Shown here in pieces: positions 1 through 50,549 of a stretch of DNA of 58,548 nt. The position numbers and the translations under genes are program-made. The stretch lies in IMG/VR virus record IMGVR_UViG_3300045855_000047, positions 1 to 58,548 of that record. One strand, given 5' to 3'. This stretch comes from a virus (lineage: Duplodnaviria > Caudoviricetes). Positions within the stretch are counted from its first letter, which is position 1; each line of letters opens with the position of its first letter. The notes under the pieces are model-generated. The model saw only the letters and a list, made by a program, of their open reading frames with translations, was not told where the DNA came from and searched no databases.

Positions 1-195
1 TCGCAATATCTGTATCGAACTGTGCGTTGGCGTGTTGAATACTGGAATGGATCTGCCTGGATTACCAGCGGGGCATTCACAACTGTGAACCTGGGCGCCG
101 ATACGGCTGCAAGTGCCACCAGTACGGCAACCTTCGCGTTTCCGAGCCCAGGGGCCTGGCAGTTCCGCATTTATGCTGAGGCCTACGATACCAAT
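1..195 (+). repeat. Terminal direct repeat, copy 1 (circular-assembly overlap)
   Basis: 1-195 matches 58354-58548 except one base (128 C vs 58481 A). Unit genome length is 58353 bp. Confidence 0.97.
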
Positions 196-765: not shown

Positions 766-778
766 CGTGGCAAGCATG
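766..778 (+). promoter_or_regulatory. Late-gene motif CGTGGCAAGCATG, copy 1
   Basis: Identical 13-mer at 766, 3986, 35852 and 42823, each just after a stop codon and before a virion gene. Confidence 0.7.
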
Positions 779-793
779 GCAGCATCCAAAAGC

Positions 794-1285
794 ATGAAAA
801 ACACCCTGGATGAGAAAATTTCGCAGGTACTGCGGGGCTATGTCCCTGCGGTGGAGTGCTTTCTCCTGCTTCGCGACATTCTGCACTTTTGGGATGATCT
901 GATCGACCGGGACCATGCGCTGGCTGATGCTCACATCCATGAATCCATGTTCAAGGTACTGATTTCACTGCCGAGCAATGAGTTCTACCGCAAGTACCAG
1001 GATCTGCTGCAGCCGGTGTTGATCAATGCCATAGCCAATTGGCGCGCAGCCAACCAGTTCGAGGGCCATGGCGATAACCGGGCCTTGCAACTGGCCTTCG
1101 TTATCCGCTCCGACTACGCCAACATTCTGATCCAGATGGCCTACATCGTGGGCGGGCATGACTGGCTGATGGAGGTCACACCGACTATCCGTGCGATGTG
1201 GACCGAAGAAGATTTTGAAGCCTACCTAACCAACCTTGAGCGCGAAAAGTGCGCTCGCCTATCGGGAGAAAAGCATGTGCTGTGA
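794..1285 (+). CDS. Hypothetical protein with DDxxD motif (isoprenoid synthase/prenyltransferase-like fold, tentative)
   Basis: All-helical-looking ORF with WDDLIDRD. Start could be 776 or 794. Confidence 0.6.
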   Translation: MKNTLDEKISQVLRGYVPAVECFLLLRDILHFWDDLIDRDHALADAHIHESMFKVLISLPSNEFYRKYQDLLQPVLINAIANWRAANQFEGHGDNRALQLAFVIRSDYANILIQMAYIVGGHDWLMEVTPTIRAMWTEEDFEAYLTNLEREKCARLSGEKHVL

Positions 1286-2321
1286 ATCTGGGGGCAGTTC
1301 TAGCTCCGCACCACCTCCTGATCCCGCCCTTGTTGCGGCGCAGATCAAGTCCATGGGGATTCAGGATGAGTCCATTGGCCAGATCATGGACATGGCCAAG
1401 AGGATGGCCCCGCTGCAAGAGCAGCAAATGCAGTTTGGCCTGGACTCTGCCAAGACCGCCTATGACCAGTCGCAGGAAGATCGCACGTGGATGCTGGGGC
1501 GCCGGGGCATTCTTTCCGGTGCGCAGGATACGATGGTGGCCGACGCAGCCAACTTCAATACTGAGGCCAAGCGTGAAGAGCTTGCCGGCAAGGCCACGGC
1601 CGATGTCAATAGTTCGTTTTCTTCTGCCCGGGACCAGGCCATGCGCGGACTGGATCGCCGTGGTGTCAATCCGGCCTCAGGTGCTGCTGGTGCGATTGAT
1701 GGCCAGCTTACCCTGGCCCAGGCCGCAGCCGGCGCGGGCGCTGCCAACAACGCGCGCACCCAGGCCCGGGCCGAGGGCAGGGCGCTCAATGACAAGGTGG
1801 TTAACTCCCTGGCGGGCTATCCAGCCATGGCTGCAGGCGAAACTACAACCGGCGCAGGCCTGGGTACAACTGGCCTGGGCATAGCCAATACGGCTCTGGC
1901 TGGTTTGAATGCAGGGTCAACGTCTGCGGCAACCATCGCCGGTTCTATGGGTACCAACGCGACACAGATGTTTGGTGCTCAGGGCCAGTACAAGAATGGC
2001 CAGGACAATGTGAACCAGGGTGATAGCGCAGCTACAACTATGGGCGGGATTGGTGGCTTGCTGGGTGGTGCAGCGAAGCTAGCCCCCGTATTTGGCTTCT
2101 CTGATCCTCGCCTGAAAGACAACATTGTGTTGGTCGGCAAGGACGAGGCTACCGGCCTTAACCTGTACGAGTTCAACTACATCACCAATCCGCGCATGCG
2201 ATTCCGTGGCGTGATGGCTGATGAAGTCCTTGCATACATGCCTGCCGCTGTCGTCAAAACGACTGATGGATACCTGGCGGTGGATTACAGCCTAATTGGC
2301 ATTGAAATGGTGGAGGTCTAA
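1275..2321 (+). CDS. Internal virion/ejection protein with C-terminal S74-type intramolecular chaperone domain
   Basis: GGAG RBS then ATG at 1275 (MCCESGGSS). Ala/Gly/Gln-rich body. C-terminal SDPRLKDNI...GVMADEV...GYLAVDY motif. Confidence 0.75.
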   Translation: MCCESGGSSSSAPPPDPALVAAQIKSMGIQDESIGQIMDMAKRMAPLQEQQMQFGLDSAKTAYDQSQEDRTWMLGRRGILSGAQDTMVADAANFNTEAKREELAGKATADVNSSFSSARDQAMRGLDRRGVNPASGAAGAIDGQLTLAQAAAGAGAANNARTQARAEGRALNDKVVNSLAGYPAMAAGETTTGAGLGTTGLGIANTALAGLNAGSTSAATIAGSMGTNATQMFGAQGQYKNGQDNVNQGDSAATTMGGIGGLLGGAAKLAPVFGFSDPRLKDNIVLVGKDEATGLNLYEFNYITNPRMRFRGVMADEVLAYMPAAVVKTTDGYLAVDYSLIGIEMVEV

Positions 2322-3977
2322 ATGGCTAAACGTGGTGGCTTCAACGATTTCATTTCTGCCTTTAATCAGGGCTTTGATACCGTCAACAAGATCGGCAAGG
2401 ACTACGAGATTTCCAAGCTGATGCAGGATAAGGGCACGGCCGTCTATAACCCTGACCAAGTAGACCAGCGTGCCGCCATTGAGGGCGCCGTTGATGCCGA
2501 TGGCAAACCCATGTATTCAGTGGATACCACGGCGGATGGGCAAACGCGGGTGCAAAGCAATCTGCCTGCTGACGATGGTACGCAACCGGCTCCATTCAAC
2601 ATTGCGGCCAATGGCACCCAGTTCATGGGCAAGACTGTTGACCATCCGATGACAGATGTGGAGAAGGCCTCTACTCGCAATATGGCAATGTCCGGCATCA
2701 TGGCTAAGTATGGTGATGCTGAGGGTGCAATGCGCTTTCAGGATAGTGCCCTGGCTATGCAGCGCGGAGCCAAGCAGGATGCCCAGGGTGACCAGCGTTT
2801 TGCGTGGGACAAGAGCCGGGCCGAGCGCGATCAGCGCCAAGGTGACCAGACTGAGGCTGATCAAAAGGTCATGCGCGATGTCGATCAAAAGACAGGCGAA
2901 TGGTTTAAGGGTCGGCTGACAAACCCCGATGGCACTGAGCGCGCCCCCACGATGGACGACCACCTGGCCGCAAGCCAGTACCGCGCAGGCCAGCTTACCG
3001 AGGCCGGCAAGGTGGAGGCCGCAGGCAAAGCTATTGCTGAACACAACTCTCAGGCGCTGATCAAGATCCAACTGGAAACCGCCCAACGCGACCAGGATCT
3101 GGCCAAGACTTCATCTGCGCTATCTGCTGGTGATTTGAATGCCGTGAAGGACTTCTACAACAAGTACGTGCCGGACGGTGCCAAGGTGGTGGCTGTCACG
3201 CGGGACGATAAAGGACAGATCAGCATCCAGCGCGAAACCATGGACGGTAAACCCATGCCGCCCACGGTAATGAAGGACACCGGCCAGCTTGCCAGTGCAC
3301 TTGCATCGTTCAAGGATCCGCTGGCGCTCTACAACTGGACGCAAAACGAGTTCAAAAACAACCTGCTGACCAATGCCGATAAGCGCGGTGAAAAGCAACT
3401 GAATTTGGAAGGTGAGCGCGTGAGCATCGCCCGCGATGCAGCGAATACCACCAAGGCCGATACCGAAGCCCTGCGCACTGCTGGCGCTGCCTACGAAAAG
3501 GCACGCCAGGCTGGCGACCAGACTGGAATGAATGCGGCCACGCTGGAGATGATCAAGGCAGGCGGCGTCAACCCGGGCGCAGCCAGTGCCAATGATCCGG
3601 CCGAGGTCAAGCTGGCCAGGGCCATGATGCAGGCTGGCATGGCCACGGATATGAAGGGTGCTCTGGAAATGGCAATTTCCAAGAAGGGCCAGTCGGCTGA
3701 CGAAATGCATAAGGCATTTGTTGAGGCGGGCATCAAGAACATGAGTTCTGCTGAGGACTCGGTAAAGAAGGCCGACGATGTGATGGGCGCCATGGGCTTC
3801 AAGAAGGTAAGCGGGCGCTGGACCCAGACCGCAGGCGCGGGCGCGCCGGCAACACCTACCAAACCGGCAAATGAAGCGGATGCTCAAACACAGGCCAAAG
3901 CGGCCATAGCTGGTGGCGCTGATAAGGCGGCAGTCAATGCACGCCTGAAAACTCTGGGATTCAAGCCCATCGACTGA
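2322..3977 (+). CDS. Internal virion/ejection protein
   Basis: 551-aa helical Ala/Gln/Asp-rich ORF, GGAGG RBS, lies between an ejection protein and the giant protein. Confidence 0.7.
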   Translation: MAKRGGFNDFISAFNQGFDTVNKIGKDYEISKLMQDKGTAVYNPDQVDQRAAIEGAVDADGKPMYSVDTTADGQTRVQSNLPADDGTQPAPFNIAANGTQFMGKTVDHPMTDVEKASTRNMAMSGIMAKYGDAEGAMRFQDSALAMQRGAKQDAQGDQRFAWDKSRAERDQRQGDQTEADQKVMRDVDQKTGEWFKGRLTNPDGTERAPTMDDHLAASQYRAGQLTEAGKVEAAGKAIAEHNSQALIKIQLETAQRDQDLAKTSSALSAGDLNAVKDFYNKYVPDGAKVVAVTRDDKGQISIQRETMDGKPMPPTVMKDTGQLASALASFKDPLALYNWTQNEFKNNLLTNADKRGEKQLNLEGERVSIARDAANTTKADTEALRTAGAAYEKARQAGDQTGMNAATLEMIKAGGVNPGAASANDPAEVKLARAMMQAGMATDMKGALEMAISKKGQSADEMHKAFVEAGIKNMSSAEDSVKKADDVMGAMGFKKVSGRWTQTAGAGAPATPTKPANEADAQTQAKAAIAGGADKAAVNARLKTLGFKPID

Positions 3978-3985
3978 CCGGTTAG

Positions 3986-3998
3986 CGTGGCAAGCATG
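3986..3998 (+). promoter_or_regulatory. Late-gene motif CGTGGCAAGCATG, copy 2
   Basis: Exact copy in the intergenic gap before the giant gene. Confidence 0.7.
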
Positions 3999-4030
3999 GG
4001 AGAGTTGCCGGGTCTTATTTGGAGATCCGC

Positions 4031-7000
4031 ATGGGCGCTTTTGACGACTTGATTCCGGCTTCTGGTGGCGGTGGTGCTTTTGATGACCTGGTACCGCAAA
4101 AACGCGAGGAGTCTGGGGGGGCCAAGGCGCTGCGCTTGGCTGATGCAACTTACAAGGCTATTGGTTCCGGGCTCATTAAGGGCTCTGCTGACCTGGCCTC
4201 TGGCATTGGCAACGCCTCAATCGATCCTTCATCTTTTGCGATGTCCACCATCCTGGGTGGTGTAGCTGCTGCCGACCGTGGCGTTACAGCCGTTGGGAAT
4301 TGGGTTTCACCAGGTAGCGCAACCCCGAGCGAGGGGATCCAGCAGACCGCGCAGGATGCTGCCGCATTCGCTGCGGCCGAGCGCGAAAAGGCAATCCAGC
4401 AGGCACGCATGCGCCAGGGCAACGACTTCAAGAATGACCTGGTGAAGATGGGCGTTCAGGTGCGCGATGCGGGGCGCACGGTGTCTGGCGCCATGCAGGA
4501 CTTCGACCAGAACAACAACCCCACGTTGACCGAGCAGAGCAAGGCCATCAACGATGCGACCGGCTTTGTGGATACCACTAAGGCCATGTTCAACAACCCG
4601 GTTGGCACTATCAACCAACTGTCCAACTCTGCCCCGGGCATGGCCGCAGGCCTGGGTCTATCACGTGCTGCCTCCATGGCGCGCATGGCTGGACTGGAAG
4701 CTGGTGCTGGAGCCACTGCCATCGAGGCGGCAAAGGTGAAGGCTATTTCATCAGCCAGCACTGCCGGCGCCGTGTCTGAGGCTGCACAAGCTGCCATTCA
4801 GGACCGCGAGAGCGTTTATCAACAGGTGGCGGGTACTCCATTCGACCAACTGGCCGAGAAGTCCCCACGCTTCAATGAAATTGTGGCCAAGGTGGGCGAC
4901 CAGGCCCGGGCCCGCCAGATCCTGGCAAACGAACTGGCCGACCAGGTGACCCTGGGCGCCGGCGTTGTCACTGGCCTTGGCACCATCGGTGTGAACAAGC
5001 TGTTTGGCGGTGACACCACGGCCAAGATTGTCAGCGGCCTGGAGAAAACCACGGCCAAGACTGCCGCAAAGGATGTGCTGCAGGAGGGTGTGGAGGAAAC
5101 GCTGCAGGGCGTTCCCGAGGATCTGGTGCAGCACGGCGCACTGAGTCAGGCCGACAAGGACAAGAAGCTGGATCTGGGTGGATCTGCCGCGCAAAACTTC
5201 TGGGCTGGCGCGCTGATGGCCTCGCATGGCGCTGGCGGCTCGTACATAAAGGACAAGATTGCCGACTACAAGGATGGTAAAGCGGCCACTCCACCGGCTG
5301 ATCCGCTAGACCCAAATCCGAGCTCCGCGACTCCCAATACACCGCCTCCATCTGCCCCGGCTGGCGCTGCTGCCACGCCCGAAGTTTCAGCCGCTGAGAA
5401 GGCCTTGATCACACCGGTAGAGCTCACCAGCCTGGACCGGGTGAATTCCATTGGTACCGAGCTTGAAGGGTTGCAGGCGCGCCAGCAGGAACTGGCACCG
5501 GGCGGCGCCTATGGTCCGATGTTCGACCAGGAGCGCACCGAAGTCGCTACCAAGATCGCGGAACTGAGCCAGGAGCGTGCCGACCTGTCCAAAGACTGGG
5601 CGAAACCGGTATTTGGAAATGCAACAACGGTAACCCTTCCGAGTGGCGCTGTTGTTGCTGCACATTGGGCTGTTATTGATGCTGGCGAGGCACTTCCAAG
5701 CCATGACATCAATCTGAAATCCAATGACAGCTACGACAAATCTCTACAGCCAAGGGATCGCGGAGAACGCCATGGGTACGAATTGCAAATCGCTGGCATT
5801 GTCCAGAGATACAACCCGGCAATGCTTGATGAATCCCCACTGGCGGGCATGGGTGCGCCAACGATGCGCATGGATGGATCGGTTATTGATGGAAACGGAA
5901 GGGAAATTGCAACGCAGCGGGTTTATCGTGCCAATGGACAAAAAGCTGCGGAACTTCGCGCTTATGTGAGTGCGAACTCTGATCGCAAGGGCATTCCTCC
6001 TGAAGCCTTTTTGCACAAGGCAAACCCGCAGTTTGTGAGGGTGATCGACCACATTCCCGGGTTCAATTACGGAGAATTTGCGAAACAAGCCAATGAGTCG
6101 GTAATGGCACCGATGTCGCCCAGCGAAACCGCCAAGTCGGATGCCAACCGCATCGACACCATGGAGGATCTGAAAGCTGACGATAACGGTGATTTCTCCA
6201 ATGCCGCCTCGCAGCCGTTCATTCGCCGCTTCATGGCCCGCCTGCCCGCCACAGAGCAGGCCGGGATGATCGACGCCAGCGGCGCGCTATCCACCACCGG
6301 CTATGCCCGGGTGCGCAATGCTGTGCTGGCCAAGGCCTACGGTGATTCGCCAGTGCTGGCCCGCATGACCGAGAGCATGGACGATAACCTGCGTAATGTG
6401 AGCAAGGCCCTGCTGCTGGCTGCACCCAAGGTGGCGCAGATGCGCGAGGCCGTGGGCGCCGGCAACCGCTTTGATGCCGACATCACGCCGGACCTGATGG
6501 GCGCTGTCGAGGAACTGTCCCGCCTGAAAGAGAAGGGCACATCCGTCGAGGATGCACTGGCCCAGGCTGGCATGTTTGGCGATGACCAGCCCCAAGAGGT
6601 CAAGGATCTGCTGCGCTTCCTGTCGGAGAACCTGCGCCGGCCGCGCAAGATTGCCGACTTCATCACCGCCTATATGGAAGCCCTGGATGCTGCCGGTGAC
6701 CCGAACCAGGGCTCACTGCTGGGTGACGTGCAAGCGCCCACCAAGGGAGAACTTTTAACCGCTGCCAAAAGGAGCCAAGATGCTGCCGGACCAACCAACA
6801 CCACGACTGCCACGGACACCCAGCGGGCAGACTCTGCAAAAAACCCGCAAGATGGTGTTGCGCCTCAAGGCCGACCAGAAAATGCGCAGAACGATCAAGG
6901 CGGCACTGGCCGCGATGGGTCTGCCCAAGGATCCGATACCCGACTCAGCCGCCAACGGAATAGCGCCCCTGTAGGCGAAGCCTCCGAGTGGGTTAACTTT

Positions 7001-10000
7001 CCCAAGGATTCCGGCACTATCGGCATTCCCCGCGCGGATATGCCCCAGATCAAAGGGGAGCATCGTGGCGCGCTGATTCAGTTCCTGCAAGCACGCGGCA
7101 TCGAGCACAAGACCAAGGAAATCCCGGCCGCTGACTTGAAGCCCACGCAAGCTGAGTTCTCCACCAAGAAGGCCGCGCGCTGGAGTGAGGTGCGTGATGG
7201 TGTGGACCGTTCCGTGCTGGTGTCCAAAGATGGCCATATTCTGGATGGGCACCACCAGTGGGTGGCGGCGCTGGCCGCGAATGAGCCGGTCAAAGCCATC
7301 GTGTTGAACGCTCCGATTCGTGAGCTCATGGCCAACGTGTTCCAGTTCCCCAGCGTCAAGCAGTCAGGGGATTCTGCAAGTGCATCCGAGGCGGACGGCC
7401 GCGCTAAGCCGCGCGAGGACTTCAAGCAGGCTATGGCCGAGCTTGCTGACCTGGTGGCCGACAAGCTGGGCACTCGCGTGATGATGATGCCGTCCGGCGA
7501 TCCCAAGATCATGGCCGTGCTGATCAAGCTGTTCGACTCTGCCATTCGCGTGGTGGGTACCGACTTGAAGGCCGCAACCAAGTGGGTGAAGGCGCAACTC
7601 AAGGGCATGCCCGAGACAAAGCCCTACTGGAACAAGATCACCGACAAGGACTATTCTGCTGCCGCCATGGCTGCGCTGGAGCAGCAAGCCACGGCGCATG
7701 TGGATGATCTATTCTCTGCTGCAGAAAAGAGCCAGGCCGATCTGTTCAGCAACGAGCCGGCCGCGCCCAAGGTGGCCATGATCGACGGCCGGGCCTATGA
7801 CTACACCTTTAAGACCGGGGATAACTTCAACCCGCCAAGCGTCAGTGACTTCTTGCCAGATAAAGAAGTCAAATTGGCTGATGGCCTGGTGGCCAAATAC
7901 TATTCCAATAAGCCAGAGGTCAAACTTGCGGCCGATATACTAGCGCGCGGTGAAAAGCTGATCCAGCCGTTCATTGACAAGGCCAATTTGGTCAAGTCGG
8001 AATATGACCAGAAGATTATCGACATTGCCACGCGTACCAAGGCTATCGGGCAATTGCTTGCTCCCATCAAGAGCACCAAACGTGCAGTTGAAAAAATGCA
8101 CGATGATGCGATTGAGAAGAATCGAGAAATGCGCGCTGATGATGTGAAGGACTTGCTGCGCGCCACCATTGTCGTATCACGGTATGAGGACGCCCAGGCA
8201 GTCATCAATGAAATCGGCAAAGAATTCAAAATCCTGCGCACGAAAAATAGAACTGAAACCGACTTCATTCAAGCCAAGGCGGAAGGCCGCAAGGGTACCG
8301 GCGGATATTCTGATGTGTTGGTTAACGTACAAATGCTCGATGGCACAGTCGCTGAAATACAGGTCAATATTCCTGAAATGTTGGCTGCAAAAGAAGGCCC
8401 TGATAAGCAGGGCCAGGGTCACAAGCTATTTGAAGCAGCTAGGGAGCAAAAAACTACAAATCCTGCTCTGTATGCTGAGATTTATGAAGCCATGGAAGGC
8501 TTCTACGATGCTACGTTCTTGGCAGCCCAGTCGCGTGCATTGGATGCCGCAGCCAAAAATCCTTTGGGATCATCAGTAAACCCCAATGCACGCGATGGTA
8601 AGTCCTTGATGCCAGGGCAAGGTATCAATGAGTCCCCATCGTCGGACAGCTTGAACCAGGAACCATCTGGGAAACAGACAAAATCATCACCATCCGAGTC
8701 TCCGGAAAACTTGCAACCTGGGGGGAAAACTTCTGGAACTTTCATATCAAACTCCAATACAGATAGTGTAGCGAAAAAAACCGAAAACGGATATAGTCAG
8801 AGCAATCTTTTTGGGGAAAGCAATGGGAATGATACAGACGGTGGAACTGGCTCTCAAGGAAAAGGCGCCGGCGCTGTATCAGCAGCTGGCCGCAAGCGGG
8901 GCACTCAAGGCCCACGTGAGGGATCTAGCGGAGCAGATCAACGCGGAGACGGTACGCCTGGTGCAGGAGGACCGTCGCAAGAATCACTGGGACAAACTGG
9001 GACCGATGGAACTGGCGGGAAAACTGAAAATGTCGGACGCACTCAATCAAGAGCGCGCGATGGCGGACCTGCTGGAGTTCCCGCAGGACGAGACATCCCC
9101 GCAAAGTCTGGGCTAAATTACGAGTTTGGACCTGATGACCTGACCTATGAAGGTTCATGGGTAAAGAAGGCCGCGCAAAACGTCGACGCAGTTGAATTGC
9201 TGGTGAAGCTGGAGGCCGAAGGGCGCCAGGCTACCAAGGACGAGCAGACTGTGCTGGCCAAGTTCGTCGGTTGGGGATCATCCGAAGTGGCCAATGCCAT
9301 CTTTGGTACGGCCGGCGACAAGAACGAGTCCAAGATCAAGGCCTTTAATCTGGCGAAGGCTGCGATTGAAAACAGCGCCAGCATCAGCTACAGCAACCCG
9401 AACTACTGGACCATCAAGGCCGTGCTGGATCAGGTTGGCCGGGCGCGCGTGCCATACCGATCTGACATCGATTCGGCATTCATCAGCCCCAAGAATTTCG
9501 GCCTGGAGTCCAGCGACATCAAGTATGGTGACCTGCGCGCACGCCTCAAGGCGGTAATGTCAAAAGATGAGTGGGCCGAGGCTTCGCGCTCTACCCAGTA
9601 CGCGCACTACACCAGCCGCGCCATCGTCACCTCCATGTATAAGGCCCTGGATCGCATGGGTTTCAAGGGCGGCGCCATGCTGGAGCCAGGCGCTGGCATT
9701 GGGGTATTCCCCGGCCTGATGCCTGCAGCCATGGCGGCAAACACTGCCTATACCGGCATCGAGTTCGATTCGATCACTGGGCGCATCCTCAAGCAGCTGT
9801 TCCCCGATGAGCGCATCCTGGTCGAGTCCTTTGTGGATTCCAAGCTGCCCAAGAATTTCTATGATGTGGCCGTTGGTAACCCGCCGTTTTCCGGCACCCA
9901 GATCCTGGGTGATCCTGAATACCAGAAACACGCTTTCAACCTGCACGACTACTTCTTCGCCAAGTCCATTGATCGTGTGAAACCCGGTGGCCTGGTGGTC

Positions 10001-13000
10001 TATGTCACCAGCAAGGGCACCATGGACAAGCTGGGCGACAAGGCCCGCCAGTACCTGGCCGGCAAAGCGGATCTGGTGGGCGCCATCCGCCTGCCGCAAA
10101 CCGCCTTCAAGCAAAACGCTGGTACCGAGGTAGTCACCGATGTGATCTTCCTTCGCAAGAAGGTACCCGGTGAAACCTTCGCGCATGCACAGGCCTGGCT
10201 CAAGACGGCCACAGTCAAGACGCCGGACGGCCCGGCCATCATCAACGAGTATTTCGCTGCTCACCCTGAAATGGTGCTTGGTACCCATGCGCTGCAGGGC
10301 TCCATGTATAAGGCCAACGAGTACACGGTGCTGCCGCTGCCTGGCGACATTGAAGAGCACTTCGCCAGAGCAGTGGAAAAGCTGCCGGCTGACATCTATG
10401 TGACCCAGCGCGGCACCAGCGCCGAAGCGGCCAAGGTCCGTGAAATCGACTTCAACCCCAAGGCCCAAAAGGAGGGTAACTACTACGTGTCCGATGCCGG
10501 CGTGCTGATGGTGCGTGAGGGCGGTGTGGGCATGCGCGCCGAGGACGTTGCAGCCAAGGATATGGAACTGGTTAAGGACTTTGTGCCACTGCGCGATGCC
10601 CTGAAACAGGCCCACTACGACCAGTTGAACAATGGCGAGTGGGAGCAGAGCATGGTCGCTCTGCAAAAGGCCTATGCCGCCTTCACCAAGAAGCACGGCC
10701 AGATCAACCAGTTCACCACCAAGATGGTCAAGACCACGGTGGTGGACGAGGAAACCGGCGAGAAATTTACCGACGAGGAAGCCCGGCGCACCCACACCCT
10801 GCTTTCCAAGATCAAGAACGACCCGGATTACACCCTGGTCATGGCGCTGGAAAACATCAACGACGATACCGGCGTGATCAGCCCCAGCGCGTTCCTGACC
10901 GAGCGCGTGTTGGGCAAGCAGGCCACGGCGCAGGTCAGCACCCCCACGGATGCGCTGCTGTCGGTACTGAATGACGTGGGCCATGTGGATATGGCGGCAA
11001 TCGCCCAGCGGCTCAATGTGTCAGAACAGGATGCCATCAGCGCCCTGGGTTCCTCCGTCTACCAAGACCCAGAGGGCGAGTGGGTGACGGCTGACGAATA
11101 CCAGAGCGGCAACGTCAAGCGCAAGCTGGAGATTGCCCGCTCCGTTGCCAAGTCCGACAAGGCCTTCGAGCGCAATGTCACTGCCTTGGAGGCGGTACAG
11201 CCAGAAGCCAAGACCCCGAGCCAGATCAATGCCAGCCTGGGCATGAACTGGATTCCCGGCCAGGTGTATGCCGACTTCCTGCAAGAGGTCACCGGCGTGC
11301 GCGCGCGGGTGGAATGGAATGCCCGCACCAAGCAGTGGATTGTGGAAGAGAAGGCCGGTGGCGCCACGATGCAAGCCCGGGCAGATTGGGGTACAGACCG
11401 CCGCAATGCGACATCCCTGCTGGAGCATGCGCTGACTGGGCGCAAGGTACGCATCGATTCGCGCGCTGGCAAGGACGAGGCGCCCAAGTTCGACCCGGCC
11501 GCAACCGAGGCGGCAAATGCCAAGCTGGTCGCTCTGCAAAACGAATTCCAACAGTGGATCTGGAAAGACCCAGAGCGCACCAATACCCTGGTGCGGGAGT
11601 TCAACGACAAGTTCAACACCACGGTACCGCGCTCATTCGATGGCACGCACCTGACGCTGCCGGGTACCTCCAAACGCTGGAGCGTGTTCGATCACGTTAA
11701 GCGCGGCGCCTGGCGTATCGTGGCGCGCGGCAATACCTACCTGGCACACGCAGTGGGCTCCGGCAAGACGTTCCAAATGGTGATTTCCGCCATGGAGCAA
11801 AAGCGCCTAGGCTTGATCAAGAAGCCCATGATGGTGGTGCCAAACCACATGCTGCAGCAGTTTGCCCGCGAGTGGCAGGATCTGTACCCGGCCGCGCGCC
11901 TGATGGTGGCTGACGAAAACAACTTCCACACCGACAACCGCCGCCGCTTCGTGTCGCGCGTGGCGCTGTCTGACCTGGACGGCGTGATCATCACCCAGTC
12001 GGCATTCAAGCTGCTGGACCTGGACCCCGAGTTCAAGCAACGCATGATTCAGGAGCAACTTGACTTCATGCGTGCGGCGCTGGTTGAGGCTGGCGGAAAC
12101 CCGGACACCCCGGGCAAGAACGGCCGCGAACCCCGCATCAAGCAGATCGAGAAGCAGATCGAGAACATGGAACAAAAGCTCGAAGCGGCCATGTCGTCGG
12201 TGGGCAAGGACAAGAATGCCCGCTTTGACGAGTTGGGTGTGGACATGCTCTATGTGGACGAGGCCCACAACTACCGCAAGCTGGATTTCACGACAAACCG
12301 CGAAGTCAAGGGCATCACCCCTGCAGGCTCCGGCCAGGCCTTTGACCTCTTCATGAAGTCGCGGTACCTGGAAGAAAAGACGCCGGGCCGCTCCCTGGTG
12401 ATGGCCTCCGGCACACCGGTTACCAATACCGTAGCCGAGCTCTACACCGTGCAGAAATTCATGGACCGCCAGGCCCTAATCGACCGTGGAATGGAGGACT
12501 TCGATAGCTGGGCGGCAATGTTCGGCCGTGAGAAAACCACGCTGGAGCCCAACGCCGCAGGAAAATACGAGCCGGTTACCCGGTTCTCCAAGTTCGTCAA
12601 CGTGCCCGAGCTCACGCAAATGTTCCGTGAGTATGCGGACGTGCTGAATTCTGACCACCTGGCAGCACTCCTGGGCGACAAGCGCCCCAAGGTGGATGGT
12701 GGATCGCGCAAGATCACCATCACACCCAAGACGGACGACTACGCTGAATACCAGGATGTGCTGTCTGAGCGTGTAGCCCAGTCCAAGGCCTGGAAGCCTT
12801 CGCCAGACCAGCCAAACAACCCAGACCCCATCATCAAGATCATTGGCGATGGCCGGCTGGCAGCAATCGATATGCGCTTCATTGATCCGAGCCTGAAAAA
12901 TGACCCGGACTCAAAGCTGAACCGCATGATTGATGACGTGATCAAGTCCTACAAGGACACGTCGAGCATGGAGTACACCGACAAGGCCGGCAACCCAGAG

Positions 13001-16000
13001 CCCAACAAGGGCGCATCCATGATGGTGTTCTCTGACCTGGGTTTCGGCGCTGGTGTGGCGGCAAGCCGTGGCTTCAATGCCCGGGCCTGGTTCGAGAAGC
13101 GTATGCGTGATTCAGGCGTGCCCATGGCGCAAGTAGCGTTCATGTCCGATTACAAGAAGTCGGCCGACAAGCTCAAGCTGTTCAAGGATGTGAATGCCGG
13201 GCGCATGCGTATCCTGGTTGGCTCCAGCAAGAACATGGGCACCGGTGTGAACGCGCAACAGCGCCTCAAGTCCCTGTTCCACCTGGATAGCCCATGGTAC
13301 CCGGCTGACCTGGAGCAGCGCGAGGGCCGCATCATCCGCCAGGGCAACAAGAACCCCTTGGTGCAGATTTACGCCTACGCTGCAAAGGGCACGTATGACG
13401 AGAATATGTGGAAGATGCTGGCCAGCAAGCAGTATTTCATTGACCAGGCCCTGAGCGGTGATGCGAACCTGCGAGAGATTGAGGATCTGGACTCCATGAG
13501 CCAGTACGACCTTGCTGCCGCCATGATCGCCGATGACCCCCGTATCCTGCAGTTAGCCGGCGCCCGGGCTGACATCGAGAAGATGCAGCGCCTGTATCAG
13601 GCCCATGAGCAGCAGCGCATGAAGTTCCTGGAGCAGTCGCGTAACGCTACATCCACGATTGCCTATGCCGAGCACCAGCTGGTGAAGGCCACGGCGGATG
13701 CCGGCCTGGTGCAGGATCTGTCCGGCGACAAGTTCACGGCCAAGGCTGGCAAGAAGGCCTACACCGTGCGTTCAGACTGGGCGCAGGCCCTGATCGACCG
13801 TTACAAGGAACTGGCTGCAAGGGTTGAAACCCAGACCCAGACCATTGGCCAGATTTCAGGTTTCAATGTGGCATTCAAGGCTGAGAATGTAGCCGGCCAA
13901 TACCTGGCCCAGATCATGCTGGAAACACCTGAGCAGCTGGTACTGGCATGGGAAGGTGGCGTAAGCCCCGTTGGTATGTCAATGCGGGCAACCAACGCAC
14001 TGGCGGCTATGGCTACTTTGCCTTATAAGCTGCGTGATCGCATTGTCGAGGCCCGGGCCCTGGTGGATGCCCTTGGTACCCGCTTGCAAACCCCGTTCCC
14101 CATGGCGCAGATGCTGGCAGAGAAGGTGCGCGAGGCTTCTGACCTGGAAGCCCAGATCGCCGCCGATAGCAAGGCCAAGGATGCGGCCAAAGCTGCTGAA
14201 TCCCCGGCGGAAGGTGAAACCAAGCTGTCCCGTGGGACTGGTGGCGGCATGGACGTATCAATCCTGGCTGCGCTGGCCACCAAGATCAAGAAGGCCATGC
14301 CAAATATGCCCATGGTGCACGTGCTGGAATCGCCAGCAAAGGCACCCAAGGCCCTGCGTGACTACATCGAAAAGCAGGGCGCCATGGCTGATGTGGAGGG
14401 CGCTTACCATGATGGTGAGCTCTACCTGTTCGCCTCCGGCCTGTCGGATGCGCTGCGTGCTGAGCACGTACTGGCCGAGCATGAGGCCGCTCACTTCGGC
14501 CTGCGCTCAATGCTGGGTGACTCCCTCAAGACCACCATGCTCATGGTCTACAACAACAACACCTATATCCGGCAGCTGGCAACCGAGTTGCAAAAGCGCG
14601 GCAAGCTGTCCAATGCTGAAGCTACGGAAGAGGCGATTGTAGACATTCCCACTTCGCGCCTGATCAAGCTCCAAGGCTGGCGCAAGCTGGTACATGGCGT
14701 GCACGCATGGCTTGGTGCCTATGGATTCGAGAACATGGCGCGCAAGGTGGGCGACTGGCTCAACGGATCCCTGGATGACCAGCAGCGTGCGGATTTGTTC
14801 GTGGCGAACCTGGTGACGGCGGCACGCCGGCACGTGGCCGGCAAGAATCAGGGCAAGTTTGATACGCAGTCCGGCACCATGCTGGCAAGCTCCATGGCCG
14901 ATGATGCCATGCAGCAAGAGAAATGGCTGATGACCGAGGCGCGCGCCCGGGGATTCAAGGACATCGACCAGTTGGCCGAGCAGGACTACCCCTTGTTCGA
15001 GAAACTGGCCAAGCTGTGGCGCGAGAAGAATCCGGCCGATGAGGGTATCCTGATGTCGCGTGGGGTTAGCGCGCTGCGGCGTTGGGCTGGTAAGTCCAAG
15101 GTTGTGGATGCAAACGGAAATCCCCGGGTGATGTACCACGGCACAACGGCCGATATTTCCACCTTCAAAGAAGGTGCGCCAATTTACGTTGCTGATACCG
15201 GTGCTGCAGCCAGCGAATATGCCAAGCAATTCGGCTATGTGGAAAACGCTGATGCTGGTAATGGCGGAAACGTCATGCCGCTCTATGTCAAGGCTGAAAA
15301 CCCATTCGATTACGAGTCTCCTGAAAATGTAGCCTGGCTGGTGTCCGCGCTCAAGGCATCCGACAAACTCAAGTCGGTACCAATCCAAGAGGATGAGGAT
15401 TACTACCCAGTTTTTGACAGTGCACAAGAGGCACTCAAGGCCGGTGACCCCTACGCATACCGCAGTAAAGTGGTTCAGGATGCCATCGCCAAACGGTTTG
15501 ATTCCTTCTACTCCGTTGCGCGCGGCGTGCGTAATCTGGCCGTGTTCTCCCCCACTCAAGTGAAAAGCGCCATTGGCAACAATGGAGCCTACGACCCAGC
15601 AAACCCGGACATCCGCATGTCGCGCCCGGGTACCGCCGCCCAGCGCGCGGACCAGATCATTCAGACCAATGCCAGCACCGCTAAGCCACTGGACGCAGTA
15701 GCGCGCATGCTGACCCGCGTTACCGGCCTGGAGCGCCTGACCGGCGCCATTTATAACCGTGCTGGCTACCTGCTGGACCGGTTCACCCCGGAAAACGTCA
15801 AGGCTGGCCTGGTGTCGGATTACGGCGTGCCCGAGTCGGTGATCGACCAACGCGCCATGATGCAGGGGCGCCAGCGCGTGCAGTTGCGCCAGGCCGGCGC
15901 CCTGATCGACAAGCTCTCTACCCTGACCCGGGCCGAGTCCCGCGTGGCCTACGCATGGATGAATGAAACCGAAGCCGGCCAGGCCGACTATTTCATGCAG

Positions 16001-18367
16001 CAGCTGCCGCCCGAGTCCGTCAAGATCCTGGAGGACGTGCGCCAGATGATCGACAAGCTCTCCCAGGAGGCCGTGCGCATGGGTCAACTTGGAGCCGATG
16101 TTTACGAAAAAACCAAGTTCGCATACCTGCGCCGGTCCTATGCCAAGTACACCATGGACCAGACCCCAGGCCAAAAGGCGGCGCGTGCGCGCGCAATCTC
16201 TGTGCTGGGTGACCAGTACAAGGGCCGAGGCCTGACTGAGGCTGCGACCATGAAGCAGATCCAGAACGTGGCGCCCGAGTGGTGGAAGCGCAAGCTGGCC
16301 AGCGGCAAAGCCGACAAGGGCCTCAAGGGCGAGAAGTTCATTCGCCTGGAGCGCCGTGCATCGAGCGGGCAGGGCGTCAACCCGCTGCCAGGTGTGGCCG
16401 GCAACAAGGCCCAGGGCCGGCTGCAGGAGGTGCACTACTTCCCAGCCGGTGAGGCGCTGCCTGCCAAGTATGCCGACTGGGACAAGGCCGGCACGTTCGA
16501 GGTGCGCGACACCCAGGGCGAGAAGGTTGTGCTCTGGCGCGACTTCACTAAGGACGAGCGCGAACAGATGGGCGAAATTGACGAGGCCCGCTTTGCCATT
16601 GCCAAGACGCTGCAGGGCATGATCCATGATGTGGAGGTGGGCCGCTACCTGGAATGGCTGGCACACAATCAGGCGCTCAAGGAAGGCCAGACTATCCCGG
16701 GCGCCGTGGTGGATGCATCCGACCGGTACCGCGACACCTTCAAGCCTGGCGAGTGGGTCAAGGTGCCCGATGCCAAGATCAGCGGCACCAGCGTGGCCAA
16801 ATACGGCAAGCTGGCCGGCCGGTACGTCCCGGGCCCGGTGTGGAACGACCTGCGCCAGACAATGAATGGCCAGTTCAAACCATTCGGTGACACCTACGGA
16901 ATGATCCTCTCTGCCTGGAAAACGGCCAAGACGGCGCTATCGCCCGCGGTGCACACCAACAACATCATGTCCAATTTCGTGATGGCCGACTGGCACGATG
17001 TCACTGCCGGCCACACAGCCAAGGCCTTGCGCATCCTCCTGGGTGCGCATGACCAGGGCGGCAAGGGCGTGCTGGGTACCATCGGAAACAAGGCCGCGGG
17101 CGTGATCGGCTCGGCCGACCGTGATGCAGCACGTGAGATTGTGAATCGGTACCTTGATTCTGGCGGTGACATTGGTTCGTGGGCAACAAACGAGATTTCC
17201 AAAAAGCAGATCGAGCCTTTGCTTGATGCCCTGGAAAAGGAACTTGCTGCAACCAACGGTCAATCTGTGCAGGCCCAGGTTGGTATCTTCCATGCGCTGC
17301 AGCATGCCCTGCAAATGCGTTTCCCCAGTGCCTGGGATTCCCTCAAGGGATCCACGACCGGCAAGGTCATTGGCACTGAGGCCAGCACCGTGATCGACCT
17401 CTACCAGTCAGAGGACGAGGTATTCCGCCTCGCTGCCTGGCTCAAGGCCAAGGAAGAGGGCAAGACCGATATGGAAGCGGGCAAGATCGCACGCCGGTCC
17501 TTCATGGACTACAGCATCAATGCACCCTGGGTGCAGGCCCTGCGCAACTCGGCGCTACCCTTCGTGAGCTATACATACCGCGCGGTACCCATGTTCATGG
17601 AGACTGCAGCCAAGAAGCCGCACAAGCTGCTCAAGCTGATGGCCATTGCCGGCGCCCTGAATGCCTTTGGCCTGATGATGGCCGGTGGTGGTGGGGACGA
17701 CAAGGAGCGCAAGCTGCTGCCGGAAGAGAAGGCCGGCCGGGTGTGGGGCCTGGTACCAAAGATGATTCGCATGCCCTGGAATGACCCCAACGGGTCGCCG
17801 GTGTACCTCGACATCCGCCGCTTCATTCCAGTGGGTGACATCTTCGACATTGGGCAAGGGCACTCGGCCATCCCATTGCTGCCGTCCCTGACGCCTGGCG
17901 GGCCGCTGGCCATCCTGGCAGAACTGGCATTGAACAAGACCCAGTTCACAGGCAAGCCCATCACCCTGGACACCGATACCGGCCTGCAGCGGGCAACCAA
18001 GGTGCTGGACTACCTATACAAGGCATTCATGCCCAATCTGCTGGGCGTGCCCGGTACCTATGCGACCACTGGTGTGTTCGATGCAGCCAACGGAAAGACG
18101 GATGCCTTCGGGCGCCAGCAGTCGGTCGCCCAGGCCATGGCTTCAAGCTTTGGCGTGAAGCTGGGTAGTTACCCGGCTGACGTGCTGGCGCGTAACCTGC
18201 GCGGCGCGGCCCAGGCCCAGATCATGGAGATTGACCGCAACATTTCAGGCTTGAAGCGTCAGCGCCAAATGAATGGCATCAGCGCCAGCGAGTTCGATAG
18301 CAAGGTGCAAGTCGAGCAGGAAAAGAAGGCAAAGGTTATGAAGGATCTGGCGGAAAAAATGAACTGA
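4031..18367 (+). CDS. Giant (4778 aa) polyvalent, DarB-like protein: DdrB-like ParB, ParB-like, RelA/SpoT-like, N6-adenine methyltransferase, SNF2-like helicase, zincin, ADP-ribosyltransferase-like and LPD38-like domains
   Basis: GGAG at 4021, ATG at 4031. Motifs in order: LQPRDR (~5745), LDGHHQW (~7240), DLLRA/GYSD/EIQ (8150-8360), LEPGAGIG and NPPF (9878), HAVGSGKT, DEAH, SGTP, QREGRIIRQGN, HEAAH (~14480), VVDANGNPRVMYHGT...FSPTQVKSA (15100-15620). Confidence 0.92.
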   Translation: MGAFDDLIPASGGGGAFDDLVPQKREESGGAKALRLADATYKAIGSGLIKGSADLASGIGNASIDPSSFAMSTILGGVAAADRGVTAVGNWVSPGSATPSEGIQQTAQDAAAFAAAEREKAIQQARMRQGNDFKNDLVKMGVQVRDAGRTVSGAMQDFDQNNNPTLTEQSKAINDATGFVDTTKAMFNNPVGTINQLSNSAPGMAAGLGLSRAASMARMAGLEAGAGATAIEAAKVKAISSASTAGAVSEAAQAAIQDRESVYQQVAGTPFDQLAEKSPRFNEIVAKVGDQARARQILANELADQVTLGAGVVTGLGTIGVNKLFGGDTTAKIVSGLEKTTAKTAAKDVLQEGVEETLQGVPEDLVQHGALSQADKDKKLDLGGSAAQNFWAGALMASHGAGGSYIKDKIADYKDGKAATPPADPLDPNPSSATPNTPPPSAPAGAAATPEVSAAEKALITPVELTSLDRVNSIGTELEGLQARQQELAPGGAYGPMFDQERTEVATKIAELSQERADLSKDWAKPVFGNATTVTLPSGAVVAAHWAVIDAGEALPSHDINLKSNDSYDKSLQPRDRGERHGYELQIAGIVQRYNPAMLDESPLAGMGAPTMRMDGSVIDGNGREIATQRVYRANGQKAAELRAYVSANSDRKGIPPEAFLHKANPQFVRVIDHIPGFNYGEFAKQANESVMAPMSPSETAKSDANRIDTMEDLKADDNGDFSNAASQPFIRRFMARLPATEQAGMIDASGALSTTGYARVRNAVLAKAYGDSPVLARMTESMDDNLRNVSKALLLAAPKVAQMREAVGAGNRFDADITPDLMGAVEELSRLKEKGTSVEDALAQAGMFGDDQPQEVKDLLRFLSENLRRPRKIADFITAYMEALDAAGDPNQGSLLGDVQAPTKGELLTAAKRSQDAAGPTNTTTATDTQRADSAKNPQDGVAPQGRPENAQNDQGGTGRDGSAQGSDTRLSRQRNSAPVGEASEWVNFPKDSGTIGIPRADMPQIKGEHRGALIQFLQARGIEHKTKEIPAADLKPTQAEFSTKKAARWSEVRDGVDRSVLVSKDGHILDGHHQWVAALAANEPVKAIVLNAPIRELMANVFQFPSVKQSGDSASASEADGRAKPREDFKQAMAELADLVADKLGTRVMMMPSGDPKIMAVLIKLFDSAIRVVGTDLKAATKWVKAQLKGMPETKPYWNKITDKDYSAAAMAALEQQATAHVDDLFSAAEKSQADLFSNEPAAPKVAMIDGRAYDYTFKTGDNFNPPSVSDFLPDKEVKLADGLVAKYYSNKPEVKLAADILARGEKLIQPFIDKANLVKSEYDQKIIDIATRTKAIGQLLAPIKSTKRAVEKMHDDAIEKNREMRADDVKDLLRATIVVSRYEDAQAVINEIGKEFKILRTKNRTETDFIQAKAEGRKGTGGYSDVLVNVQMLDGTVAEIQVNIPEMLAAKEGPDKQGQGHKLFEAAREQKTTNPALYAEIYEAMEGFYDATFLAAQSRALDAAAKNPLGSSVNPNARDGKSLMPGQGINESPSSDSLNQEPSGKQTKSSPSESPENLQPGGKTSGTFISNSNTDSVAKKTENGYSQSNLFGESNGNDTDGGTGSQGKGAGAVSAAGRKRGTQGPREGSSGADQRGDGTPGAGGPSQESLGQTGTDGTGGKTENVGRTQSRARDGGPAGVPAGRDIPAKSGLNYEFGPDDLTYEGSWVKKAAQNVDAVELLVKLEAEGRQATKDEQTVLAKFVGWGSSEVANAIFGTAGDKNESKIKAFNLAKAAIENSASISYSNPNYWTIKAVLDQVGRARVPYRSDIDSAFISPKNFGLESSDIKYGDLRARLKAVMSKDEWAEASRSTQYAHYTSRAIVTSMYKALDRMGFKGGAMLEPGAGIGVFPGLMPAAMAANTAYTGIEFDSITGRILKQLFPDERILVESFVDSKLPKNFYDVAVGNPPFSGTQILGDPEYQKHAFNLHDYFFAKSIDRVKPGGLVVYVTSKGTMDKLGDKARQYLAGKADLVGAIRLPQTAFKQNAGTEVVTDVIFLRKKVPGETFAHAQAWLKTATVKTPDGPAIINEYFAAHPEMVLGTHALQGSMYKANEYTVLPLPGDIEEHFARAVEKLPADIYVTQRGTSAEAAKVREIDFNPKAQKEGNYYVSDAGVLMVREGGVGMRAEDVAAKDMELVKDFVPLRDALKQAHYDQLNNGEWEQSMVALQKAYAAFTKKHGQINQFTTKMVKTTVVDEETGEKFTDEEARRTHTLLSKIKNDPDYTLVMALENINDDTGVISPSAFLTERVLGKQATAQVSTPTDALLSVLNDVGHVDMAAIAQRLNVSEQDAISALGSSVYQDPEGEWVTADEYQSGNVKRKLEIARSVAKSDKAFERNVTALEAVQPEAKTPSQINASLGMNWIPGQVYADFLQEVTGVRARVEWNARTKQWIVEEKAGGATMQARADWGTDRRNATSLLEHALTGRKVRIDSRAGKDEAPKFDPAATEAANAKLVALQNEFQQWIWKDPERTNTLVREFNDKFNTTVPRSFDGTHLTLPGTSKRWSVFDHVKRGAWRIVARGNTYLAHAVGSGKTFQMVISAMEQKRLGLIKKPMMVVPNHMLQQFAREWQDLYPAARLMVADENNFHTDNRRRFVSRVALSDLDGVIITQSAFKLLDLDPEFKQRMIQEQLDFMRAALVEAGGNPDTPGKNGREPRIKQIEKQIENMEQKLEAAMSSVGKDKNARFDELGVDMLYVDEAHNYRKLDFTTNREVKGITPAGSGQAFDLFMKSRYLEEKTPGRSLVMASGTPVTNTVAELYTVQKFMDRQALIDRGMEDFDSWAAMFGREKTTLEPNAAGKYEPVTRFSKFVNVPELTQMFREYADVLNSDHLAALLGDKRPKVDGGSRKITITPKTDDYAEYQDVLSERVAQSKAWKPSPDQPNNPDPIIKIIGDGRLAAIDMRFIDPSLKNDPDSKLNRMIDDVIKSYKDTSSMEYTDKAGNPEPNKGASMMVFSDLGFGAGVAASRGFNARAWFEKRMRDSGVPMAQVAFMSDYKKSADKLKLFKDVNAGRMRILVGSSKNMGTGVNAQQRLKSLFHLDSPWYPADLEQREGRIIRQGNKNPLVQIYAYAAKGTYDENMWKMLASKQYFIDQALSGDANLREIEDLDSMSQYDLAAAMIADDPRILQLAGARADIEKMQRLYQAHEQQRMKFLEQSRNATSTIAYAEHQLVKATADAGLVQDLSGDKFTAKAGKKAYTVRSDWAQALIDRYKELAARVETQTQTIGQISGFNVAFKAENVAGQYLAQIMLETPEQLVLAWEGGVSPVGMSMRATNALAAMATLPYKLRDRIVEARALVDALGTRLQTPFPMAQMLAEKVREASDLEAQIAADSKAKDAAKAAESPAEGETKLSRGTGGGMDVSILAALATKIKKAMPNMPMVHVLESPAKAPKALRDYIEKQGAMADVEGAYHDGELYLFASGLSDALRAEHVLAEHEAAHFGLRSMLGDSLKTTMLMVYNNNTYIRQLATELQKRGKLSNAEATEEAIVDIPTSRLIKLQGWRKLVHGVHAWLGAYGFENMARKVGDWLNGSLDDQQRADLFVANLVTAARRHVAGKNQGKFDTQSGTMLASSMADDAMQQEKWLMTEARARGFKDIDQLAEQDYPLFEKLAKLWREKNPADEGILMSRGVSALRRWAGKSKVVDANGNPRVMYHGTTADISTFKEGAPIYVADTGAAASEYAKQFGYVENADAGNGGNVMPLYVKAENPFDYESPENVAWLVSALKASDKLKSVPIQEDEDYYPVFDSAQEALKAGDPYAYRSKVVQDAIAKRFDSFYSVARGVRNLAVFSPTQVKSAIGNNGAYDPANPDIRMSRPGTAAQRADQIIQTNASTAKPLDAVARMLTRVTGLERLTGAIYNRAGYLLDRFTPENVKAGLVSDYGVPESVIDQRAMMQGRQRVQLRQAGALIDKLSTLTRAESRVAYAWMNETEAGQADYFMQQLPPESVKILEDVRQMIDKLSQEAVRMGQLGADVYEKTKFAYLRRSYAKYTMDQTPGQKAARARAISVLGDQYKGRGLTEAATMKQIQNVAPEWWKRKLASGKADKGLKGEKFIRLERRASSGQGVNPLPGVAGNKAQGRLQEVHYFPAGEALPAKYADWDKAGTFEVRDTQGEKVVLWRDFTKDEREQMGEIDEARFAIAKTLQGMIHDVEVGRYLEWLAHNQALKEGQTIPGAVVDASDRYRDTFKPGEWVKVPDAKISGTSVAKYGKLAGRYVPGPVWNDLRQTMNGQFKPFGDTYGMILSAWKTAKTALSPAVHTNNIMSNFVMADWHDVTAGHTAKALRILLGAHDQGGKGVLGTIGNKAAGVIGSADRDAAREIVNRYLDSGGDIGSWATNEISKKQIEPLLDALEKELAATNGQSVQAQVGIFHALQHALQMRFPSAWDSLKGSTTGKVIGTEASTVIDLYQSEDEVFRLAAWLKAKEEGKTDMEAGKIARRSFMDYSINAPWVQALRNSALPFVSYTYRAVPMFMETAAKKPHKLLKLMAIAGALNAFGLMMAGGGGDDKERKLLPEEKAGRVWGLVPKMIRMPWNDPNGSPVYLDIRRFIPVGDIFDIGQGHSAIPLLPSLTPGGPLAILAELALNKTQFTGKPITLDTDTGLQRATKVLDYLYKAFMPNLLGVPGTYATTGVFDAANGKTDAFGRQQSVAQAMASSFGVKLGSYPADVLARNLRGAAQAQIMEIDRNISGLKRQRQMNGISASEFDSKVQVEQEKKAKVMKDLAEKMN
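6780..6974 (+). CDS. Nested +1-frame small basic ORF (64 aa) inside the giant gene
   Basis: AAGGAG 5 nt before ATG 6780. Coincides with a low-complexity linker of the host protein. Confidence 0.45.
   Translation: MLPDQPTPRLPRTPSGQTLQKTRKMVLRLKADQKMRRTIKAALAAMGLPKDPIPDSAANGIAPL
8503..8745 (-). CDS. Nested antisense small acidic protein (80 aa), candidate antitoxin/immunity protein for the RelA/SpoT-like domain
   Basis: Minus-strand GGAG 6 nt before ATG 8745, TACACT -10-like box at 8770-8765. Protein-like sequence MKVPEVFPPGCKFSGDSDGDDFVCFPDGSWFKL. Host frame is S/P-rich and low-complexity over the same span. Confidence 0.65.
   Translation of the reverse strand: MKVPEVFPPGCKFSGDSDGDDFVCFPDGSWFKLSDDGDSLIPCPGIKDLPSRALGFTDDPKGFLAAASNARDWAAKNVAS
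8765..8797. promoter_or_regulatory. Intragenic divergent promoter region with phage operator AACCGAAAACGGAT (8779-8792)
   Basis: AT-rich island. Minus-strand -10 TACACT (8770-8765) and plus-strand -10 TATAGT (8792-8797). The 14-mer matches operators at 27760 and 30645. No good -35 boxes seen. Confidence 0.6.
8823..9116 (+). CDS. Nested +1-frame TnpV-like protein (97 aa; alternative start 8829)
   Basis: GGGGAAAG before ATG. LKEKAPALYQQLAASGALKAHVRDLAEQ...MELAGKLKM...ERAMADLL resembles the TnpV family pattern by eye. Host frame is G/R/T-rich and disordered here. Confidence 0.7.
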   Translation: MGMIQTVELALKEKAPALYQQLAASGALKAHVRDLAEQINAETVRLVQEDRRKNHWDKLGPMELAGKLKMSDALNQERAMADLLEFPQDETSPQSLG

Positions 18368-18369
18368 TT

Positions 18370-50089: not shown

Positions 50090-50106
50090 TGGCCTGAGCG
50101 ATAGCG

Positions 50107-50538: not shown

Positions 50539-50549
50539 TATGTTAAAGG

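Follow-up and report, generated by a model that had tools for sequence, protein, structure and literature searches.

A putative TnpV-like gene embedded in the +1 frame of a giant polyvalent DarB-like phage gene: conservation, selection and a predicted docking site on the methylase–helicase module

The window analysed here is the whole 58,548-bp stretch of the complete virus record IMGVR_UViG_3300045855_000047 (Caudoviricetes), in which a short open reading frame (ORF) for a TnpV-like protein lies entirely inside a giant gene, on the same strand and in a different frame. The giant gene (4019..18367, +) encodes 4782 amino acids (aa) and sits after structural and ejection-like genes; where translation really starts is uncertain, the first possible start codon being TTG 4019. 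According to its translation and Pfam, this single polypeptide contains several unrelated effector domains, including a methylase–helicase dyad, and it is termed polyvalent DarB-like because it combines a ddrB-ParB domain (aa 544–675), an Eco57I-type methylase core (PF07669; aa 1943–2016, positions 9845..10066, +), an SNF2/ResIII/Helicase_C region (aa 2571–3109) and an ART-PolyVal domain (aa 3697–3857). Packaging of the giant protein in the virion and its injection are suggested only by analogy: mass spectrometry found JC1 gp69, a related giant, associated with virions (PMC9144972), and the passages of that paper on JC1 nowhere mention an inner gene.

The nested ORF (8823..9116, +) occupies the +1 frame of the giant ORF and was delineated from its frame offset, conservation, Pfam and AlphaFold2. 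It encodes 97 aa plus the stop codon. The frame has its own ATG and runs open from 8772 up to the TAA at 9114–9116; choosing the alternative ATG at 8829 would give 95 aa. A GGGGA resembling a Shine–Dalgarno (SD) motif (8813..8817, +) stands 5 nt ahead of ATG 8823 and qualifies under a loose SD definition only. Among homologous starts with correct coordinates, an ATG is found in 25 out of 25, and a strict SD 4-mer (AGGA, GGAG or GAGG) occurs at −16..−4 in 19 out of 25, compared with 17.8% of local windows (P = 3e-10, a value that ignores relatedness). Both the ATG and the SD motif are retained between clades that are only 32% identical. Since the nested frame contains a stop 0–2 codons before the ATG in several loci (L004, L019, L022, L043, L027 and the phage Pavtok), initiation is favoured over frameshifting. 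No promoter-like site was found on the + strand at 8300–9400 and, therefore, translation from the mRNA of the giant gene would be the simplest reading; a search for relevant Rfam matches also found none.

The frame is conserved among relatives, a point on which the initial annotation had staked its proposal. The window's protein retrieved 18 close relatives, called by gene callers on short contigs. In a tblastn search against phages it gave a single weak match (E = 0.4), in the +1 frame of a gene of Erwinia phage Pavtok (gp27, annotated as ‘DarB-like antirestriction’), and against plasmids it gave no match, as did an L017-type query against phages. The ORF is nested with the same frame offset, inside a giant or open-ended ORF, in all 15 IMG/VR contigs and in the three Pavtok-type IMG/VR contigs, and thus in 18/18 of the related viral contigs examined, counts that are not phylogenetically independent. 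A scan of genome contigs yielded two loci, one nested in a Burkholderiales metagenome-assembled genome (MAG) and one stand-alone in an Azonexus MAG, and in metagenomes 19 of 28 loci examined are nested, the other nine being stand-alone, truncated or ambiguous (some of these loci duplicate IMG/VR contigs, and one duplicate was dropped). Locus scans with P0033 and P0105 as queries found none.

Matches were also obtained in 12 cultured phages (21 records), namely Pavtok, PEp14, Stean, SopranoGao, LASTA, SJM3, Itty13, Atu_ph08, VvAW1, PBC5, POI1126 and Mwe-JY07. Frames were assigned from annotated coordinates in nine of the 12, and eight of these are nested in +1, the exception being PBC5. The nested ORF is annotated in none of them, since only the giant gene is listed under the match in the 21 records. 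Carriers comprise phages of Erwinia, Klebsiella, Pseudomonas, Agrobacterium, Vibrio, Sinorhizobium, Ochrobactrum and Microcystis, in addition to the Burkholderiales and Azonexus MAGs. The domains upstream of the nested ORF vary, with Zeta_toxin in L019 and GGDEF plus InPase in L028. In most loci the nested ORF ends at the beginning of the methylase module, in agreement with the initial annotation, which had placed its stop where the methylase region resumes. That description holds for the window, where conserved host-frame sequence begins at about 9074, but not for L016–L018, where another domain directly follows and the methylase lies some 600 aa further on.

Two of the cultured phages show peculiarities of their own. 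In Sinorhizobium phage PBC5 (L069; NC_003324.1), the giant gene is divided, within the locus 2950–18713, between two overlapping ORFs (2185 aa and 3210 aa). The first carries the TnpV-like segment in frame at its end, as the C-terminal part of gp22, and the giant ORF downstream overlaps this segment. Between gp21 and gp22 the RefSeq record has 1.6 kb without annotation, and it may contain frame errors. In Pseudomonas phage Itty13 (L070; NC_070969.1), a DarB-like giant ORF of 4109 aa at 2–12328 on the minus strand is unannotated, and the plus-strand ‘hypothetical proteins’ gp01–gp03 annotated over it look like antisense miscalls.

Comparison of the two frames indicates where the constraint lies. 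When each frame was aligned independently, mean pairwise identity reached 41.7% in the nested frame and 31.0% in the giant frame, which did not exceed the 31.6% of the third, non-coding frame, and the nested frame was more conserved than the giant frame in 77 of 78 pairs. Moreover, across 12 close pairs, the differences at nested codon positions 1/2/3 number 206/157/300 (chi-square P = 4e-11), and the four sites that differ between L010 and L050 are all silent in the nested frame and all change the giant frame. From these patterns, selection is judged to act mainly on the nested frame, with the giant frame a fast-evolving disordered linker over this stretch. The host-frame reading (8822..9073, +) is indeed rich in Gly, Arg, Asp and Gln and of low complexity, and AlphaFold2, given 14 aligned host-frame peptides, assigns it no secondary structure, with a predicted local distance difference test (pLDDT) score of 51.1 and a predicted template modelling (pTM) score of 0.10. 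Both frames are constrained where the nested ORF ends and conserved host-frame sequence resumes (9074..9116, +), as read from the conservation of LEFPQ in one frame and G[VI]PAG in the other; here, the nested C-terminal tail LEFPQDETSP, of which residues 88–97 have pLDDT <50, lies over host-frame GVPAGRDIPAKSGLN. Since LEFPQ, read as G[VI]PAG in the host frame, is retained even in L016–L018 despite their different downstream domain, it is probably the nested gene that dictates this host-frame motif.

The nested protein itself is predicted by AlphaFold2 (28 sequences) to fold into four helices with a pLDDT of 85.9 and a pTM of 0.71, which bears out its initial description as a natural helical protein; the TnpV motif spelled out in that description is likewise present. 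Family members are mildly acidic (median isoelectric point 5.0); the net charge is about −4. Its assignment to TnpV requires more caution. The window's protein scores 19.5–19.6 bits (E ~1e-3) against Pfam TnpV (PF14198), below the gathering cut-off of 27 bits, and for this reason it is called TnpV-like here and not a member of the Pfam family. Nevertheless, TnpV is the only recurrent family, matched by 22 of 24 members at E ≤ 1 (best 1.6e-5) and by three of four Pavtok-type ORFs at ~1e-4, and the nearest cluster in the ESM Atlas is TnpV as well (score 0.92). The matches span model positions ~23–110 of 111, starting at 23–34, so that the N-terminal quarter is absent. A profile built from 28 nested proteins retrieved 281 representatives at E ≤ 1e-3, nearly all of 85–135 aa. 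In the 132 scanned (the 150 representatives listed minus P0015 and 17 short or partial rows), TnpV was matched by 57 at E ≤ 0.01 and by 15 at 27 bits or more. One of the representatives, P0025, combines E = 4.8e-33 to the nested profile with 32.4 bits to TnpV; the stand-alone copies L049 and L054 reach 28.2 and 37.9 bits, and the Pavtok ORF aligns with the family profile at E = 2.9e-6 (hhalign). Because intermediates retrieved with the nested profile pass the Pfam cut-off, homology to TnpV can be traced, and the nested protein is in good probability a divergent, TnpV-like homologue within the TnpV superfamily. Structure searches provided no functional lead from solved or predicted structures: Foldseek gave no match in the PDB at E ≤ 1e-3, the wide search with VIA-align peaked at Z 5.8, the noise level for helices, and a sequence profile search of the PDB returned a designed repeat protein alone (E = 0.024). 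The best BFVD match was Q8W6J4_2 (E = 0.46, probability 0.99), a candidate for the in-frame form of PBC5.

These results also bear on how the overlap arose. In the initial annotation the TnpV-like protein was described as overprinted. That it is encoded in the +1 frame ahead of the methylase–helicase module holds, but the direction is probably the reverse, with the TnpV frame being the old, selected one, since its family existed already and purifying selection acts on this frame. The linker frame, in turn, looks derived, a read-through by which modules of the giant protein are joined.

A physical link between the two products was explored by co-folding the nested protein (alignment A2) with a 620-residue fragment of the host protein, aa 1686–2305 (alignment A5, 11 loci). 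The interaction score ipSAE was 0.77 in 3/3 runs, compared with 0.00 for the best of three controls, with at least 66% contact agreement between runs and a partner pLDDT of at least 74. Of 80 solved complexes, 58 attained that mark, as did 2 of 110 mismatched pairs, a rough calibration because our own alignments were used here. The predicted docking surface covers host aa 2230–2298 (10706..10912, +; fragment residues 545–613) and includes an invariant D-P-D..L..A-L motif (columns D583, P584, D585, L588, A591 and L592); on the nested side, it involves residues 33–72. The co-fold thus agrees with the initial suggestion that the small protein may partner the methylase–helicase module, and both binding and regulation stand as predictions.

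Taken together, these observations would fit the following scheme. The mRNA of the giant gene would also be translated by internal initiation at the nested SD-like motif and ATG, yielding a mildly acidic four-helix protein of ~97 aa, a divergent relative of PF14198. The giant-frame linker would be free to vary as long as it stays open, so that selection would fall mainly on the nested frame. The small protein would bind the methylase–helicase at the conserved surface described above and could play an accessory role, e.g., as a chaperone for folding or packaging or as a regulator of the methylase–helicase, and nesting would guarantee its co-inheritance and co-expression with the giant protein. 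To this reading as a whole, i.e., embedded TnpV-like gene, internal initiation and methylase–helicase partner, we assign a probability of roughly 0.6. Its parts differ in strength: 8823–9116 is very probably a real, expressed embedded gene, as judged from comparative sequence evidence, while for a physical partnership with the methylase–helicase module of the giant protein the modelling suggests about even odds.

Several observations weigh against this scheme. The openness of the frame on its own is not significant and lies within chance, with a probability of 0.23 after shuffling host-frame codons (across local codon shuffles the frame stays open in 7–79% of trials) and of 0.059 from the gene-wide +1 stop density; the case that the nested ORF exceeds chance is drawn instead from its conservation, codon-position pattern, start signals, fold and family match. 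The sub-threshold Pfam score and the relatedness of the contigs counted have been mentioned. Nei–Gojobori (NG86) ratios over all pairs, 0.85 vs. 1.16, show a modest gap and are saturated (proportion of synonymous differences, pS, ~0.5), the close pairs being more informative. As for the partnership, stand-alone copies and Firmicute TnpV occur without a methylase–helicase, and the other domain directly after the nested ORF in L016–L018 separates it from the methylase. Moreover, the interface residues adjoin the cut end of the 620-residue fragment and may be exposed core, and the interface uses the variable middle of the nested protein and not its most conserved parts, the N-terminal hairpin and the LEFP motif.

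The main rival for the function, though an unlikely one, accepts the embedded gene and proposes that its product acts independently on the host cell, e.g., in anti-defence against NrtR-Nudix/metallophosphoesterase/REase-ARP systems, with nesting serving only compaction and co-expression. It draws on the stand-alone homologues. The free-standing copy of the Azonexus MAG (L023, 5983–6381; 132 aa, 26.6 bits to TnpV) is flanked on one side by HD, NUDIX-NrtR and Metallophos genes and on the other by HNH, REase-ARP and type I restriction–modification genes, and further stand-alone copies have a Metallophos (L054, L038, L060), NUDIX-NrtR (L054) or REase-ARP (L052) gene as a neighbour. This neighbour set resembles the ARG-centred systems for which PMC9503650 (section 3.8) predicts a role against viral ADP-ribosylation, and with which it shares the NrtR-type Nudix-HTH, calcineurin-like phosphoesterase, HD phosphohydrolase and REase-ARP components; that section does not list a TnpV-like component. 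The variability of the domains adjoining the nested ORF points in the same direction, as does the presence of PF14198 in 16 of 24 MOBQ2 mobilizable elements, given as of unknown function and with no methylase–helicase named in the passages on these elements. On the other side, the scanned ORFs around the stand-alone copies contain no ARG domain, so that the match to the published systems is only partial, and the methylase-segment co-fold passed with clean controls. In addition, a net charge of about −4 is remote from the values of typical strong DNA mimics.

Nested and stand-alone states change four times on a 33-row tree, three rows of which are imperfectly cut, and at least three of these changes are forced by well-supported branches. 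In the 401 genomes of the order to which the Azonexus MAG belongs, matches were found in two. A further and still less probable idea combines both contexts: the TnpV-like protein would be a dedicated partner of the methylase–helicase effector surface, and bacteria would have repeatedly captured its gene into NrtR-Nudix/metallophosphoesterase/REase-ARP islands as a bait or sensor for the injected giant. If this were true, a phage accessory gene would have been turned into a defence component, and the TnpV family would gain its first functional handle, i.e., the binding of proteins that enter cells with mobile DNA.

Around the bacterial copies, some additional features were recorded. In L023, a 62-aa ORF without a Pfam family (5791–5979) ends 3 nt before the ATG of the stand-alone gene. 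L038 encodes a 269-aa protein (1265–2074) with a TnpV-like N-terminus and a C-terminal half without an assigned family, downstream of a Metallophos gene. One of the two matches among the 401 genomes, L026 (G152:C10, 1312–2174), is a degraded remnant in a bacterial genome: the nested ORF has lost all but its C-terminal two thirds, and in the host frame the start of the methylase stays open over just 244 aa.

Programmed +1 frameshifting, in which the TnpV-like segment would be the C-terminal domain of a truncated N-terminal product, is very unlikely. In-frame forms do exist, namely the C-terminus of PBC5 gp22 and P0107 (347 aa), in which the same upstream domain is joined in frame to a TnpV-like end. 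Yet the PBC5 record, with its unannotated 1.6-kb gap, may be affected by frame errors, the six loci with nested-frame stops just before the ATG and the enrichment of SD-like motifs ahead of it favour initiation, and inspection of upstream stretches by eye revealed no shared slippery site. A search for longer relatives found no fused forms of 194–2000 aa, which is weak evidence. The least probable account, a gene remnant swallowed at fusion and held open, unexpressed, by G/A-rich linker codons, could appeal to the codon shuffles and to the long alternative-frame ORFs common in the GC-rich giant gene (up to 223 aa; those at 8169–8579 and 13971–14642 match no Pfam family), but is disfavoured by the third-position excess and higher conservation of the nested frame, the ATG and SD motif kept across distant clades, the confident fold, and the repeated movement of intact copies to stand-alone contexts.

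Candidates for separate-gene counterparts located ahead of methylase–helicase genes on the Pseudomonas plasmid pSH5-1 and on a Roseomonas plasmid were rejected (hhalign E = 0.081, 0.32 and 0.062; no Pfam TnpV match). On pSH5-1 (L030, 4677–11846), a zeta toxin, a 101-aa protein and the methylase–helicase are encoded by separate genes, an order that parallels the Zeta_toxin/nested ORF/methylase order of the L019 giant, as a positional analogy only; the family of the 101-aa protein (19 relatives) has no significant similarity to the nested family.

Beyond the giant gene, the record contains a diversity-generating retroelement (48980–51804) whose reverse transcriptase (50803–51804) matches phrog_1423 at E = 5e-99. 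Its pair of 114-nt repeats (49965–50078 and 50550–50663) is 82% identical; as the alignment was read, the mismatches in the repeat core fall at A of the 50550 copy, the template, and the ORF 48980–50089 has the variable copy at its 3’ end. An ORF resembling a tail protein (53854–58548; at least 1565 aa) runs off the 3’ end and a 5’-open ORF occupies 1–765; the record is probably a circular permutation whose cut falls within the tail-protein-like gene. Integrase-like (18579–19589, −; E = 2.5e-9) and RecT-like (25937–26995, −; E = 7e-54) matches suggest a temperate phage.

The arrangement can be compared with known systems. TnpV is a small protein of Tn4451. The nested protein resembles this family in its size of ~100 aa, its all-helical composition, the K-x-x-P-x-L-Y..L..S-G-x-L hairpin motif and a C-terminal E-x-v-L..L-x-F ending, and also in travelling with the DNA-entry machinery of mobile elements. 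However, it lacks the first 25–30 or so model positions and, whereas TnpV is a free-standing gene of Firmicute transposons and mobilizable or conjugative elements, the window's copy is embedded in another gene, and the nested gene is carried by phages of Proteobacteria and of a cyanobacterium. TnpV is widespread on mobile elements and has no known function; the predicted docking site on the methylase–helicase makes this function directly testable. In phage P1, the Dar accessory proteins are encoded by genes of their own and are not known to be relatives.

As for gene architecture, an embedded class such as Rz1 inside Rz, the spanins, is described in the relevant part of PMC9144972. In both cases, a whole gene with its own start lies in another frame of the same strand. 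In the case presented here, however, the outer frame is the disordered linker of a 4782-aa virion effector (its virion location being drawn by analogy), the inner gene comes from a pre-existing family, and the functional pair is predicted only. The locus would thus represent a natural case in which a long outer frame is weakly constrained while a short inner frame carries the selection, which bears on gene callers and on dN/dS estimates of phage giants. Moreover, a conserved gene missed in all annotations examined implies that genes can go unnoticed within the linkers of giant polyvalent genes.

Finally, the host gene shares its ddrB-ParB, methylase, SNF2 helicase and ART-PolyVal domains with the polyvalent DarB-like methylase–helicase dyads described by Iyer et al. 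(2017; PMC5512222), among them P1 DarB. The main text of that study contains no occurrence of TnpV, overlapping or frameshift, so that the embedded gene is not described there, and a literature search on TnpV, PF14198, DarB with a nested gene and DarB-like phage, covering texts without their supplements, found no prior description either. The stand-alone copies link the polyvalent effectors of phages with a class of predicted bacterial conflict systems.

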